Origin: a phage
Assembly: GCA_027337125.1 (NCBI GenBank)
Contig: GCA_027337125.1_3057.1
Reading direction: 5' to 3' (one strand)
Length of the DNA: 64,000 nucleotides
Below the pieces are notes generated by a model. That model worked only from the letters and a program-made list of their open reading frames with translations, searched no databases and was not told the DNA's origin. A program made the position numbers and the translations under genes. How positions within the stretch are numbered: position 1 is the first letter of the stretch; the number at the start of each line of letters is the position of its first letter. This document shows, piece after piece, positions 1 through 12,458 of this stretch.

Positions 1-2613
1 CGTGAAGTAGAATATCTTCCGACTATGTTTAGGCATTGTAAGGAAGAGTCAAAATACAAAGACATCTATGGTAAAAACTGTGCTCCTCAAAAATTTCCAT
101 CAATGAAAGATGCTCGAGATTGGATGAAGCGAATGGAAGACATCGGTCTCGAAGCTCTCGGTATGAACGATTTTAAACTCGCTTATATCAGTGATACATA
201 TGGTTCAGAAATTGTTTATGACCGAAAATTTGTTCGTGTAGCTAACTGTGACATTGAGGTTACTGGTGATAAATTTCCTGACCCAATGAAAGCAGAATAT
301 GAAATTGATGCTATCACTCATTATGATTCAATTGACGATCGTTTTTATGTTTTCGACCTTTTGAATTCAATGTATGGTTCAGTATCAAAATGGGATGCAA
401 AGTTAGCTGCTAAGCTTGACTGTGAAGGTGGTGATGAAGTTCCTCAAGAAATTCTTGACCGAGTAATTTATATGCCATTTGATAATGAGCGTGATATGCT
501 CATGGAATATATCAATCTCTGGGAACAGAAACGACCTGCTATTTTTACTGGTTGGAATATTGAGGGATTTGACGTTCCGTATATCATGAATCGCGTTAAA
601 ATGGTTCTCGGTGAACGTAGTATGAAACGTTTCTCTCCAATCGGTCGAGTAAAATCTAAACTAATTCAAAATGTGTACGGTAGCAAAGAAATTTATTCTA
701 TTGATGGCGTATCTATTCTTGATTATTTAGATTTGTATAAGAAATTCGCATTTACTAATTTACCGTCATTCTCTTTGGAATCAGTTGCTCAACATGAAAC
801 CAAAAAAGGTAAATTACCGTACGACGGTCCTATTAATAAACTTCGTGAGACTAATCATCAACGATACATTAGTTATAACATCATTGACGTAGAATCAGTT
901 CAAGCAATTGATAAAATTCGTGGGTTTATCGATCTAGTTTTAAGTATGTCTTATTATGCTAAAATGCCTTTTTCTGGTGTAATGAGTCCTATTAAAACTT
1001 GGGATGCTATTATTTTTAACTCGTTGAAAGGTGAACATAAGGTTATTCCTCAACAAGGTTCGCACGTTAAACAGAGTTTTCCGGGTGCATTTGTGTTTGA
1101 ACCTAAACCAATTGCTCGTCGATATATTATGAGTTTTGACTTGACGTCTCTGTATCCGAGTATTATTCGTCAGGTTAACATTAGTCCTGAGACTATTCGT
1201 GGGCAGTTTAAAGTTCATCCAATTCATGAATATATTGCAGGAACAGCTCCTAAACCGAGTGATGAATATTCTTGTTCTCCGAATGGATGGATGTATGATA
1301 AGCATCAAGAAGGTATCATTCCAAAGGAAATCGCTAAAGTATTTTTCCAGCGTAAAGACTGGAAAAAGAAAATGTTCGCTGAAGAAATGAATGCCGAAGC
1401 TATTAAAAAGATTATTATGAAAGGCGCAGGGTCTTGTTCAACTAAACCTGAAGTTGAACGATATGTTAAGTTCAGTGATGATTTCTTAAATGAACTATCG
1501 AATTACACCGAATCCGTTCTCAATAGTCTGATTGAAGAATGTGAAAAAGCAGCTACACTTGCTAACACAAATCAACTTAACCGTAAAATTCTTATTAACA
1601 GTCTTTATGGTGCTCTTGGTAATATTCATTTCCGTTACTATGATTTGCGAAATGCTACTGCTATCACAATTTTCGGCCAAGTCGGTATTCAGTGGATTGC
1701 TCGTAAAATTAATGAATATCTGAATAAAGTATGCGGAACTAATGGTGAAGATTTCATCGCAGCAGGTGATACTGATTCGGTATATGTTTGCGTAGATAAA
1801 GTTATTGAAAAAGTTGGTCTTGACCGATTCAAAGAGCAGAACGATTTAGTTGAATTCATGAATCAGTTCGGTAAGAAAAAGATGGAACCTATGATTGATG
1901 TTGCATATCGTGAGTTATGTGATTATATGAATAACCGCGAGCATCTGATGCATATGGACCGTGAAGCTATTTCTTGCCCTCCACTTGGTTCAAAGGGCGT
2001 AGGTGGATTTTGGAAAGCGAAAAAGCGTTATGCTCTGAACGTTTATGATATGGAAGATAAGCGATTTGCTGAACCGCATCTAAAAATCATGGGTATGGAA
2101 ACTCAGCAGAGTTCAACACCAAAAGCAGTGCAAGAAGCTCTCGAAGAAAGTATTCGTCGTATTCTTCAGGAAGGTGAAGAGTCTGTCCAAGAATACTACA
2201 AGAACTTCGAGAAAGAATATCGTCAACTTGACTATAAAGTTATTGCTGAAGTAAAAACTGCGAACGATATAGCGAAATATGATGATAAAGGTTGGCCAGG
2301 ATTTAAATGCCCGTTCCATATTCGCGGTGTGCTAACTTATCGTCGAGCTGTTAGTGGTCTAGGTGTAGCTCCAATTTTGGATGGAAATAAGGTAATGGTT
2401 CTTCCATTACGTGAAGGAAATCCATTTGGTGATAAGTGCATTGCTTGGCCATCGGGTACAGAACTTCCAAAAGAAATTCGTTCTGATGTGCTATCTTGGA
2501 TTGACCACTCAACTTTGTTCCAAAAATCGTTTGTTAAACCGCTTGCAGGTATGTGTGAATCGGCTGGCATGGACTATGAAGAAAAAGCTTCGTTAGACTT
2601 CCTGTTTGGCTGA
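1..2613 (+). CDS. 43: DNA polymerase gp43 (family B), 5'-truncated at window edge (frame open from nt 1)
   Basis: Long ORF whose translation matches T-even gp43 throughout; motifs SLYPS and GDTDS present; stop TGA 2611-2613. Confidence 0.95.
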   Translation, partial: REVEYLPTMFRHCKEESKYKDIYGKNCAPQKFPSMKDARDWMKRMEDIGLEALGMNDFKLAYISDTYGSEIVYDRKFVRVANCDIEVTGDKFPDPMKAEYEIDAITHYDSIDDRFYVFDLLNSMYGSVSKWDAKLAAKLDCEGGDEVPQEILDRVIYMPFDNERDMLMEYINLWEQKRPAIFTGWNIEGFDVPYIMNRVKMVLGERSMKRFSPIGRVKSKLIQNVYGSKEIYSIDGVSILDYLDLYKKFAFTNLPSFSLESVAQHETKKGKLPYDGPINKLRETNHQRYISYNIIDVESVQAIDKIRGFIDLVLSMSYYAKMPFSGVMSPIKTWDAIIFNSLKGEHKVIPQQGSHVKQSFPGAFVFEPKPIARRYIMSFDLTSLYPSIIRQVNISPETIRGQFKVHPIHEYIAGTAPKPSDEYSCSPNGWMYDKHQEGIIPKEIAKVFFQRKDWKKKMFAEEMNAEAIKKIIMKGAGSCSTKPEVERYVKFSDDFLNELSNYTESVLNSLIEECEKAATLANTNQLNRKILINSLYGALGNIHFRYYDLRNATAITIFGQVGIQWIARKINEYLNKVCGTNGEDFIAAGDTDSVYVCVDKVIEKVGLDRFKEQNDLVEFMNQFGKKKMEPMIDVAYRELCDYMNNREHLMHMDREAISCPPLGSKGVGGFWKAKKRYALNVYDMEDKRFAEPHLKIMGMETQQSSTPKAVQEALEESIRRILQEGEESVQEYYKNFEKEYRQLDYKVIAEVKTANDIAKYDDKGWPGFKCPFHIRGVLTYRRAVSGLGVAPILDGNKVMVLPLREGNPFGDKCIAWPSGTELPKEIRSDVLSWIDHSTLFQKSFVKPLAGMCESAGMDYEEKASLDFLFG

Positions 2614-2626
2614 TAGAATAAATCTA

Positions 2627-2648
2627 GGGACCTCCAGGTCCCTTTTTC
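2627..2648 (+). terminator. Intrinsic terminator downstream of gene 43
   Basis: GGGACC-tcca-GGTCCC hairpin followed by TTTTT. Confidence 0.65.
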
Positions 2649-2710
2649 ATACAAGTAATATAAATCTATACTTATGAAAAAGAGATGATTCTGGACCCTT
2701 TGGATTCCCT

Positions 2711-2760
2711 AAAAATTTTTTCACAAAACTGTTTACATCCCTGTTCTTCTATGGTACTAT
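2711..2760 (+). promoter_or_regulatory. T-even early promoter (A/T-rich UP region, -35 GTTTAC 2731-2736, -10 TACTAT 2755-2760)
   Basis: Matches T4 early promoter architecture; member of a repeated promoter cassette family. Confidence 0.6.
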
Positions 2761-2797
2761 ACAACTATCAACTACTGATACGGATTTGGAGAATGAA

Positions 2798-3034
2798 ATG
2801 AAAATTGTTATGGGATGCTTAGCAGTTTGTTTAGTTGCATTAGCAGCAGTTCCATTTGTTAGTGTTGAAAATGATACCCAACCTGTGATTGAATCTAGCA
2901 CTGTTATTCACACTAATGGTAAAATATCAGTTAAAATTGATGATAATCTTCATGTGAATACAAATGGATCTTTAGGTGTGCAAATAGGTAATACCTGCAT
3001 AAGCACTATTGGAGTAATTACTACTTGCATTTGA
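2798..3034 (+). CDS. Small secreted/membrane protein (N-terminal hydrophobic signal-like segment)
   Basis: ATG 2798 preceded by GGAG; track ORF 2786 uses TTG and is less likely; position between 43 and imm. Confidence 0.55.
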   Translation: MKIVMGCLAVCLVALAAVPFVSVENDTQPVIESSTVIHTNGKISVKIDDNLHVNTNGSLGVQIGNTCISTIGVITTCI

Positions 3035-3044
3035 GGAAATTATT

Positions 3045-3432: not shown

Positions 3433-3684
3433 ATGGAAACTTTAGTAGCAGGTTCAATTTTTATGGTTTTAGTTTCAGGTGTGTTGGCTATTATTATATA
3501 CATGCTTCCTTGGTTCATTGCCTTGATGCGTGGGTCAAAATCGACAGTAGGAATCTTTTTTACATCTTTACTGTTTAACTGGTCAATCATTGGTTGGTTT
3601 ATTACATTTATTTGGTCAATTGCGGGTGAAACTAAAAAGTCAACACAGCCAAATCAAGTAATTATCATCAGAGAGAAGGAATGA
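3433..3684 (+). CDS. imm: Immunity to superinfection membrane protein Imm (83 aa)
   Basis: 83-aa two-TM protein at the position of T4 imm between 43 and 42; GAGG RBS. Confidence 0.8.
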   Translation: METLVAGSIFMVLVSGVLAIIIYMLPWFIALMRGSKSTVGIFFTSLLFNWSIIGWFITFIWSIAGETKKSTQPNQVIIIREKE

Positions 3685-3830
3685 AAAGCAAAATTTTAGC
3701 AGTATTGCTTTTAATCTTGATGATTATAATAAGTATATACTATAGTGTAACGGTTCCTCTTATGATTCCAACTATTATTTTAGGTTGGGGTTTATTACTG
3801 TTACAAGTTAAATATGAATGTATCAATTGA
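3681..3830 (+). CDS. Small hydrophobic membrane peptide (49 aa), not in ORF track
   Basis: ATG overlaps imm stop (ATGA); uninterrupted hydrophobic ORF fills the imm-42 gap; ends just before 42 RBS. Confidence 0.4.
   Translation: MKSKILAVLLLILMIIISIYYSVTVPLMIPTIILGWGLLLLQVKYECIN
3707..3730 (+). promoter_or_regulatory. Candidate MotA-dependent middle promoter upstream of gene 42 (MotA box TGCTTTTA, -10 TATAAT 3725-3730)
   Basis: TGCTT box about 18 nt upstream of a TATAAT hexamer. Confidence 0.35.
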
Positions 3831-3837
3831 GGTTTAA

Positions 3838-4578
3838 ATGATTAATGATTCTTTGACAGTTGAAGAAATCCGTCTTCATTTGGGAATTGCATTAAAGGAA
3901 AAAGATTTCGTAATTGATAAAACTGGTGTTAAAACTATTGAAATTATTGGCGCATCATTTGTAGCAGATGAACCGTTTATTTTTGGCGCTCTTAATGATG
4001 AATACATTCAGCGTGAACTTGAATGGTACAAGTCTCAAAGTCTGTTTGTTAAAGATATTCCAGGCGAAACGCCAAAGATTTGGCAACAGGTAGCATCTTC
4101 TAAAGGTGAAATTAACTCGAATTATGGTTGGGCTATCTGGTCAGAAGATAACTATGCCCAGTATGATATGTGTTTAGCTGAACTTGGTCAAAATCCTGAT
4201 TCTCGCCGCGGTATCATGATTTATACTCGTCCATCCATGCAGTTTGACTACAACAAAGATGGTATGTCAGATTTCATGTGTACGAATACAGTACAGTACC
4301 TGATTCGTGATAAGAAAGTCAATGCAGTAGTAAGCATGCGTTCAAATGACGTGGTCTTTGGATTCCGTAATGATTATGCATGGCAAAAATACGTACTAGA
4401 TAAATTAGTATCTGATTTGAATGCAGGTGATTCAACTCGTCAGTATAAAGCAGGTTCCATTATATGGAATGTTGGAAGCCTTCATGTGTATTCTCGTCAT
4501 TTTTATTTGGTTGACCATTGGTGGAAAACTGGCGAAACTCATATTGCGAAAAAAGATTATAACGGTGAGTGGAAATGA
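3838..4578 (+). CDS. 42: dCMP hydroxymethylase gp42 (246 aa)
   Basis: Translation matches T4 gp42 in sequence and length; thymidylate-synthase-like fold motifs. Confidence 0.93.
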   Translation: MINDSLTVEEIRLHLGIALKEKDFVIDKTGVKTIEIIGASFVADEPFIFGALNDEYIQRELEWYKSQSLFVKDIPGETPKIWQQVASSKGEINSNYGWAIWSEDNYAQYDMCLAELGQNPDSRRGIMIYTRPSMQFDYNKDGMSDFMCTNTVQYLIRDKKVNAVVSMRSNDVVFGFRNDYAWQKYVLDKLVSDLNAGDSTRQYKAGSIIWNVGSLHVYSRHFYLVDHWWKTGETHIAKKDYNGEWK

Positions 4579-5417
4579 TTCAATTCGTAATTCCAAGCTA
4601 TCAACGTGTAGGGGCAGTTTCTGCCCTTGATATGTTTCCGACTGATTATGAACCTCATATTGTAGTACGTAAACACGAAGAAAAAGCTTATTATGACGCT
4701 TATGGGTCTAGAGCTAAAATTATAACTATTCCTGATGATGTTAATGGAATTGCTGGAACTCGTAAAGCAATTACTGATATGTATGCAGGTCAACGAATCT
4801 GGATGATTGACGATGATACTACGATTCGTATGAGTTCAATACGAAAGAGAGACGATAAACGGCGCGTAGATAAAATTAATCAATTAACTCGTGAACAGTT
4901 CTATGAATTGATTCAATACGTTGAAGATGCCATGGATTGCGGGTATTATCATGGCCATGCTCGTCTACCAATTTTTAAAATTACTTCATCTTGGGGTAAT
5001 TATCGTGAAAACTCATATGGATTCACGAATACGTGGTATGACCTCGGAAAACTTACGACAGAACAAATTGGGTATGGAAAAATTGATTTATGCGAAGATA
5101 TGTATGCATTTCTCAATTTAATTAATCAAGGTTATCCGCATTTGGCCTTGTTCAAATATCTAGTTGTATCTGGAAAATCACACGCTCCCGGTGGGTGTAG
5201 TTCAATTCGTAGTAATTCTAAACATAATAGAGCGCTTGAGCAAATCAATAGAGAGTTTCCAGAGCAAGCTCGTTGGAAAACTTCTAATATTGAAAAACGA
5301 AAATCGTTGGGTGAAGAAGATGAACCATTAAAGGTTCTTCGCATGTGTGTTTCGCGTAAAGAAAAATCAGAAGCATTTCATAAGTTTAATGCTATTCATC
5401 CAATAGCAGTTGATTAA
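4575..5417 (+). CDS. GT2-like (GT-A fold) glycosyltransferase, putative HMC-DNA sugar transferase at the beta-gt locus
   Basis: ATG overlaps gene 42 stop (ATGA); N-terminal IPSYQR and DDD (DxD) motifs typical of family 2 glycosyltransferases; 280 aa, unlike T4 beta-gt (351 aa). Confidence 0.6.
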   Translation: MIQFVIPSYQRVGAVSALDMFPTDYEPHIVVRKHEEKAYYDAYGSRAKIITIPDDVNGIAGTRKAITDMYAGQRIWMIDDDTTIRMSSIRKRDDKRRVDKINQLTREQFYELIQYVEDAMDCGYYHGHARLPIFKITSSWGNYRENSYGFTNTWYDLGKLTTEQIGYGKIDLCEDMYAFLNLINQGYPHLALFKYLVVSGKSHAPGGCSSIRSNSKHNRALEQINREFPEQARWKTSNIEKRKSLGEEDEPLKVLRMCVSRKEKSEAFHKFNAIHPIAVD

Positions 5418-5494
5418 TGCCTAAATTTATTGTGTTATAATTACTCTATCTTTAACCAGTGAGGAAAATATAATGATGCCTATGGAAAAAATGA

Positions 5495-6676
5495 ATGTCT
5501 ATTGCAGATTTAAAATCCCGTTTGATTAAAGCTTCCACTTCTAAAATGACTGCTGAACTGACTACATCTAAATTCTTTAATGAAAAGGATGTAATTCGTA
5601 CAAAAATCCCAATGCTTAATATTGCTATTTCTGGTGCGATTGATGGCGGTATGCAGTCTGGTTTAACTATTTTCGCAGGGCCTTCTAAACACTTTAAATC
5701 AAATATGTCTTTGACTATGGTTGCGGCATATTTGAACAAATATCCTGATGCAGTTTGTCTATTCTATGATAGCGAATTTGGTATTACTCCAGCTTATTTG
5801 CGATCCATGGGAGTTGACCCGGAACGAGTAATTCATACGCCAATCCAGTCAGTTGAACAGCTAAAAATTGATATGGTGAATCAGCTTGAAGCTATTGAGC
5901 GCGGTGAAAAGGTTATTGTATTCATCGACTCAATCGGTAATATGGCTTCTAAGAAAGAAACGGAAGATGCCCTGAATGAAAAATCTGTGGCAGATATGAC
6001 TCGTGCTAAATCACTGAAGTCATTATTCCGTATTGTTACTCCTTACTTTAGCATTAAAAATATTCCGTGTGTTGCGGTTAACCATACAATTGAAACAATT
6101 GAAATGTTTAGTAAAACCGTGATGACAGGTGGTACAGGCGTAATGTATTCGGCTGATACCGTATTCATTATCGGTAAACGTCAGATTAAAGATGGTTCTG
6201 ATCTTCAGGGGTATCAATTTGTTCTAAATGTAGAAAAATCTCGTACTGTTAAAGAAAAAAGTAAATTCTTTATTGATGTTAAATTTGACGGTGGTATCGA
6301 TCCTTATTCTGGATTGTTAGATATGGCTCTAGAATTAGGATTTGTAGTAAAACCTAAAAATGGCTGGTATGCTCGTGAATTTCTTGACGAAGAAACCGGC
6401 GAGATGATTCGCGAAGAAAAATCTTGGCGTGCAAAAGATACCAACTGCACTACATTCTGGGGTCCTTTATTTAAGCATCAACCATTCCGAGATGCTATTA
6501 AACGTGCTTATCAGTTAGGTGCTATTGATAGTAATGAAATTGTTGAAGCTGAAGTTGATGAATTGATTAACTCAAAGGTTGAAAAATTTAAATCTCCAGA
6601 AAGTAAAAGTAAATCAGCTGCTGATTTAGAAACTGACCTCGAGCAGTTAAGTGATATGGAAGAATTTAATGAGTAA
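5495..6676 (+). CDS. uvsX: UvsX recombinase (RecA/Rad51 family)
   Basis: Translation matches T4 UvsX; Walker A-like GPSKHFKS; 393 aa. Confidence 0.93.
   Translation: MSIADLKSRLIKASTSKMTAELTTSKFFNEKDVIRTKIPMLNIAISGAIDGGMQSGLTIFAGPSKHFKSNMSLTMVAAYLNKYPDAVCLFYDSEFGITPAYLRSMGVDPERVIHTPIQSVEQLKIDMVNQLEAIERGEKVIVFIDSIGNMASKKETEDALNEKSVADMTRAKSLKSLFRIVTPYFSIKNIPCVAVNHTIETIEMFSKTVMTGGTGVMYSADTVFIIGKRQIKDGSDLQGYQFVLNVEKSRTVKEKSKFFIDVKFDGGIDPYSGLLDMALELGFVVKPKNGWYAREFLDEETGEMIREEKSWRAKDTNCTTFWGPLFKHQPFRDAIKRAYQLGAIDSNEIVEAEVDELINSKVEKFKSPESKSKSAADLETDLEQLSDMEEFNE

Positions 6677-11118: not shown

Positions 11119-12458
<1,340 letters not shown>

Follow-up and report, generated by a model that had tools for sequence, protein, structure and literature searches.

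The transfer of a second glucose onto the DNA of T-even phages is a textbook function, and the biochemistry of the transferase was described in the 1960s. Phages T2 and T6 lack beta-gt, and in these phages the second glucose is added in beta-1,6 linkage after the alpha-glucosyltransferase (alpha-gt) has acted (PMC13216743, PMC11078745, bioRxiv 10.64898/2026.02.25.707755). The resulting gentiobiosyl-hydroxymethylcytosine (gentiobiosyl-hmC) amounts to ~5% of hmC in T2 and ~72% in T6, with ~25% of hmC remaining bare (PMC11078745, bioRxiv 10.64898/2026.02.25.707755). The T6 gene was recently deleted, modelled and surveyed (PMC11078745, PMC13216743, bioRxiv 10.64898/2026.02.25.707755): the T6 delta-ba-gt strain contains alpha-glucosyl-hmC only and its DNA becomes a substrate of Brig1 (PMC11078745); the BapA hydrolase frees glucose from T6 delta-g-gt DNA, but not from wild-type T6 DNA (bioRxiv 10.64898/2026.02.25.707755); and the T6 protein (TAGT), as modelled with AF3, displays a GT-A fold, placed as a sister group of GT2 (PMC13216743). 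In vitro, gentiobiosyl-hmC resists both Brig1 and BapA (PMC11078745, bioRxiv 10.64898/2026.02.25.707755). In phages EL, Geo, and BGP, HPLC/MS revealed hmC, alpha-glucosyl-hmC, and alpha-gentiobiosyl-hmC at a ratio of ~1:2:2 and no beta-glucosyl-hmC, and synteny of their TAGT gene with T4 beta-GT was noted (PMC13390438).

The sugar pattern of hmC decides which host defences (McrBC, GmrSD/BrxU, Brig1, BapA/Brig3, CRISPR) can attack a T-even phage and, therefore, recognising the second-glucose gene in a genome predicts a phage with T2/T6-type DNA. Here, we analysed a stretch of 64,000 nucleotides of phage DNA (assembly GCA_027337125.1, contig GCA_027337125.1_3057.1; hereafter the window) and conclude, with a probability of roughly 93%, that the product of the gene at 4575-5417 is a T2/T6-type beta-glucosyl-HMC-alpha-glucosyltransferase, the enzyme which adds the second glucose to T-even DNA. 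The gene predicts that the DNA of the window phage contains bare hmC, alpha-glucosyl-hmC, and gentiobiosyl-hmC without beta-glucosyl-hmC, a DNA type that is useful to know for phage typing and for the choice of therapy phages. The literature already describes the gene together with its function, fold, and synteny with T4 beta-gt, and our finding is a correct but routine annotation that adds no new biology; its practical value lies in the prediction of gentiobiosylated hmC DNA.

The locus between gene 42 and uvsX

The DNA of the window belongs to a T4-like phage genome (Tequatrovirus). When its first 25 kb were searched against phage records, the best match was Escherichia phage GEP001 (96.9% identity), other best-matching Tequatrovirus records were ~95-97% identical, and no record matched exactly. 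The left end of the window falls inside gene 43 (residues 29-898 of T4 gp43 align to window positions 1-2610 with 99.7% identity), and from there the gene order is gene 43, imm.1, imm, gene 42, the transferase open reading frame (ORF), uvsX, gene 40, gene 41, and gene 61. The first-pass annotation of this DNA had placed a 280-aa protein in the beta-gt locus, between gene 42 and uvsX, and this position was borne out by the neighbours, which match T4 gp42 and UvsX. Upstream lies gene 42 (3838-4578, plus strand; 95.5% identity to T4 gp42; Pfam Thymidylat_synt), coding for dCMP hydroxymethylase, the maker of hmC and thus a partner of the transferase in the same pathway; downstream lies uvsX (5495-6676, plus strand; 90% identity to T4 UvsX). 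The same interval of T4 holds the 351-aa b-gt plus segA. The order 42 - transferase - uvsX was also present in T6, T2, GEP001, EL, Geo, BGP, Solly, CP, and TB37.

The transferase coding sequence (variously named ba-gt, g-gt, ggt, or TAGT) occupies 4575-5417 on the plus strand as an uninterrupted ORF of 280 aa that begins with MIQFVIPSYQR. The program-made ORF list opened the frame at GTG 4569; we rejected this start and prefer ATG 4575, since the annotations of GEP001, EL, and T2 use the corresponding start and a Shine-Dalgarno-like hexamer, GGTGAG (4564-4569), lies 5 nt upstream of it. As read from the sequence, the translation start region (4564-4578, plus strand) ends in an ATGA at 4575-4578, in which the ATG (4575-4577) overlaps the TGA stop codon of gene 42 (4576-4578), and because start and stop overlap in this manner, translation of the transferase is probably coupled to that of gene 42. 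A scan of 3600-5600 for sigma-70 promoters returned 15 sites versus 9.5 expected, all of them weak, in AT-rich DNA and with a model that does not cover T4 early and middle promoters.

We also observed a G+C-rich hairpin at 4603-4636 (core GGGGCAG-UUU-CUGCCCU) within the 5'-terminal part of the gene, which partly sequesters the AUG of Met20. The 91-nt region surrounding it (4560-4650) folded with -25.8 kcal/mol (z = -2.6 in comparison to shuffled sequences), and the hairpin is kept in T6 and T2.

Orthology to the T6 and T2 enzymes

Comparison with the closest described proteins revealed full-length orthology to the T6 and T2 enzymes. The window protein is identical to T6 ggt at 251 of the 261 residues annotated in T6 (96%), differing at 10 positions, and shares 97% identity over 280 aa with the T2 protein, 98% with that of GEP001, and 278 of 280 residues with that of phage vB_Eco_EL (EL), the two differences being K33 (E in EL) and I50 (V in EL). 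The length of 280 aa, the genomic position, a start codon that runs into the stop of gene 42, and the full set of conserved motifs are likewise common to the T6/T2 enzymes and the window copy, which are set apart by point differences only. Residues 1-275 matched phrog_842, 'beta-glucosyl-HMC-alpha-glucosyltransferase' (E 1.5e-87), and residues 3-207 aligned to positions 2-205 of the 205-position Pfam profile PF20691 (TET-associated glycosyltransferase, TAGT) with a score of 39.4 bits, above the curated gathering cutoff of 27.5. By megablast, the gene was found in 479 phage records at a nucleotide identity of at least 90% (477 of them nearly full length), and the specific names given to it in RefSeq/GenBank under the nucleotide match are beta-glucosyl-HMC-alpha-glucosyltransferase or glucosyl transferase. 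Its occurrence in this many records, together with the phrog_842 match, indicates that the ORF is a real gene and not a product of chance.

The first example offered in the first-pass annotation was a second glucose on alpha-glucosyl-HMC as in T2/T6, and the identity of 96-97% to those very enzymes bears it out, as does EL, which has the nearly identical protein and in whose DNA alpha-gentiobiosyl-hmC was seen by HPLC/MS (PMC13390438); the other option it had raised, a different sugar, found no support. Orthology and synteny, like the fold and motifs described below, come directly from our analysis, and the predicted activity and DNA product are drawn from published work, namely the T6 deletion mutants and the HPLC/MS of EL. 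A TAGT-family transferase might in principle have another specificity, using a different sugar donor or taking hmC or beta-glucosyl-hmC directly as acceptor, since the family is functionally diverse, with homologues found alongside alpha-GT, alongside beta-GT, or on their own and with substrates that are mostly untested (PMC13216743), and since relatives exist down to 20-30% identity. However, the 96-99% full-length identity to the T6, T2, and EL proteins, the retention of every invariant family residue, and the occurrence in EL DNA of gentiobiosyl-hmC without beta-glucosyl-hmC (PMC13390438) make a deviating specificity very improbable for the window enzyme.

We then compared the second-glucose transferase with T4 beta-glucosyltransferase (PF09198), which sits at the same locus and also acts with UDP-glucose on hmC-containing DNA, but has a GT-B fold (the window protein is GT-A), an unrelated sequence, and bare hmC as its acceptor. 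That the window protein is not T4 beta-gt, as had been proposed from the sequence, was upheld when a full-length alignment between the two was sought: BLASTP detected no similarity to T4 beta-gt (best E-value 3.9, i.e., unrelated proteins). The accompanying proposal of a modification different from that of T4 agrees with a gene of the T2/T6 second-glucose type. Within the window, tblastn found no T4 beta-gt, no segA, and no T4 or T6 alpha-gt; in T6 and GEP001 alpha-gt lies ~7-8 kb beyond gene 43, i.e., off the left end of the window. A search for T4 b-gt DNA matched no more than 29 phage records, which are essentially those of T4 and phages closely derived from it. At this locus, then, the window-type allele is the norm of the genus and T4 is the exception, a view that RefSeq and nr surveys have reached as well (PMC13216743).

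The shared genomic position could suggest that the gene is functionally analogous to T4 beta-gt and adds one beta-glucose to hmC that alpha-gt has not modified, and some database records do give T4 b-gt the ba-gt name, such that the two are easily confused. Given the absence of sequence similarity to T4 b-gt, the GT-A versus GT-B fold, and the finding that phages with the window-type gene have no beta-glucosyl-hmC and leave ~25-33% of hmC bare (PMC13390438, bioRxiv 10.64898/2026.02.25.707755), the probability of such an analogue is next to negligible.

In RB55 (KM607002.1) and RB59 (KM607003.1), a gene 100% identical to T4 b-gt is labelled 'beta-glucosyl-HMC-alpha-glucosyl-transferase'. This label is a database misannotation in which two unrelated enzymes have been mixed up.

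Fold, conserved motifs, and the proposed reaction

A profile search collected 51 relatives of the window protein down to ~20% identity, nearly all of them with PF20691, and a family alignment of 49 sequences served as input for AlphaFold2. The resulting model was confident (mean pLDDT 92, pTM 0.90) and consists of a single Rossmann-like alpha/beta/alpha domain similar to solved GT-A structures, in which a strand (residues 3-7) precedes the PSYQR loop and a second strand (residues 74-78) runs directly into DDD. This layout is the canonical GT-A arrangement and confirms, at the level of the model, the GT-A fold that the first reading of the sequence had claimed. That reading had also pointed to an IPSYQR motif and to a hydrophobic-DDD motif, and both were recovered, at residues 6-11 and within WMIDDDT at residues 76-82. 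IPSYQR (4590-4607, plus strand) spans the last part of strand beta1 and the loop behind it, where GT-A enzymes have their nucleotide-binding loop. DDD (residues 79-81; 4809-4817, plus strand) sits where a core beta strand ends and corresponds to the DxD motif for binding of metal and the UDP-sugar diphosphate.

In the family alignment, R11, R63, and D79-D81 were conserved in 49 of 49 sequences, and I6 (48/49), P7 (46/49), R32, Y39, T62, and R212 were nearly invariant; the window protein keeps all invariant residues. D175 of the CED motif (5097-5099, plus strand; D in 43/49) is located at the start of a helix (residues 174-184) in the model and is paired, in a weak profile alignment, with the ED of GT2 enzyme 9jma; by analogy to the (T)ED motif of GT2 enzymes, it is probably the base of the inverting transfer. 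A further, family-specific motif is the PGGCS loop (residues 205-209; 5187-5201, plus strand), of which PGGC (205-208) is conserved in 37-43 of the 49 sequences (G206 and G207, 43; C208, 40), and which is adjoined by the allele differences at S202 and H203 described below.

Searches of the PDB by sequence and by profile found no solved structure of the family. The best profile match was the aforementioned 9jma, at a non-significant E of 0.089, and in this weak alignment IPSYQR pairs with IPTYNR. The Pfam GT2 models did not match the window protein, PF20691 being the only one reported at E up to 1, and the identity to GT2-family GT-A enzymes (AvpGT/PglI-like 9jma, TarS, TarP, RmlT, BcsA) was only 8-16%. 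These enzymes have a lipid, teichoic acid, or glycan as acceptor, in contrast to the sugar on DNA used by the window enzyme, which also has no membrane domain. The earlier description 'GT2-like' therefore stands for the fold and not for the family, in which a significant match is wanting: the protein is GT2-like by fold, not a demonstrated GT2 member, and its family by profile is TAGT.

Taken with the published biochemistry, the second-glucose reading suggests the following pathway. The hm-dCMP made by gp42 would be incorporated into the phage DNA, and a phage alpha-glucosyltransferase, encoded outside the window, would add an alpha-linked glucose to part of the hmC residues. The window enzyme, a predicted soluble GT-A-fold protein of ~280 aa, would then use UDP-glucose to attach a second glucose, beta-1,6-linked, to the alpha-glucose and so yield gentiobiosyl-hmC. 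We infer the roles of individual residues from the model and by analogy: the IPSYQR loop and the invariant DDD may hold UDP-glucose and a divalent metal, and a conserved acidic residue, probably D175, may act as the base. An inverting transfer would fit a beta linkage made from an alpha-linked donor.

Allelic variation and neighbouring features

The window copy carries the haplotype I89 K95 R97 I101 S202 H203, which is common to EL, Geo, and BGP. Solly, CP, TB37, T2, and T6 instead have M89 R95 C97 V101 A202 Q203, as does GEP001 except for I101, and K33 is private to the window among the copies compared. NR1, QOTSP, Some, and EH2, four out of ten Durham Tequatrovirus records, are numbered from a different start and do not enter this allele comparison. 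Gentiobiosyl-hmC accounts for about two-thirds in the DNA of Solly, CP, and TB37 and ~40% in that of EL, Geo, and BGP, so that conversion is near-complete with the M89-type allele and only partial with that of the window, a comparison of allele and sugar that sets three phages against three and is confounded by EL, Geo, and BGP being nearly clonal.

Variation of this kind raises the question of whether the gene is weak or inactive in the window phage, with DNA mostly mono-alpha-glucosylated as in T2. T2 has the gene and yet only ~5% gentiobiosyl-hmC, the T6 GenBank record even shows a stop at codon 10, and the window copy has the haplotype of EL, Geo, and BGP, phages in which gentiobiosylation reaches only ~40%. 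On the other hand, the window ORF is intact and retains Q10, R11, and P251, at which the T6 record has an amber codon (codon 10) and T2 has R11H and P251S, and EL-type phages still produce substantial gentiobiosyl-hmC (PMC13390438). We therefore consider a weak or inactive copy highly improbable and retain the active second-glucose transferase as the preferred reading.

In the T2 record (AP018813.1; copy at 4283-5125, minus strand), the R11H change affects a residue that is invariant in 49 of 49 relatives and is accompanied by P251S. From the sequence, these two changes are candidates for the cause of the low (~5%) gentiobiosyl-hmC of T2. A broader idea is that the allele itself sets the ratio of mono- to di-glucosylated hmC and that R11H likewise explains the 5% of T2, such that natural variation in one enzyme would tune the sensitivity of a phage to defences specific for alpha-glucosyl-hmC, i.e., Brig1 or BapA/Brig3; we regard this as doubtful.

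The T6 record (MH550421.1; copy at 4138-4980, minus strand) has TAG at codon 10, where all nine remaining copies of the comparison, including that of the window, encode Gln (by CAA in the window and T2); its annotation consequently starts the gene at Met20 and gives it 261 aa. The annotated product is devoid of strand beta1 and the IPSYQR loop. The same record also has three private changes (Y40N, D55G, R106H). An amber codon at this position is odd in T6, a phage known for 72% gentiobiosyl-hmC, and a scan of IMG/VR found no copy of the amber allele.

Elsewhere in the window, a Dam-type D12 adenine methyltransferase gene (11679-12458, plus strand) is abutted by a 186-aa ORF (11119-11679, plus strand; phrog_8706) that is present in 181 phage records and has sub-threshold Pfam matches to the DpnII (GATC enzyme) and BanI restriction endonucleases. 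EL, Geo, and BGP have the same neighbourhood, with a Dam gene preceded by a restriction-enzyme-like ORF, and the 186-aa ORF is probably the 'restriction enzyme-like gene' reported for these phages (PMC13390438). Lastly, the gap between gene 43 and imm.1 (2614-3044) measures ~430 bp in the window, in comparison to ~180 bp in T4, T6, and GEP001. Within this gap lies a 78-aa ORF (2798-3034; phrog_4189) with a hydrophobic N-terminus, and the insert is common, being covered by 320 phage records.
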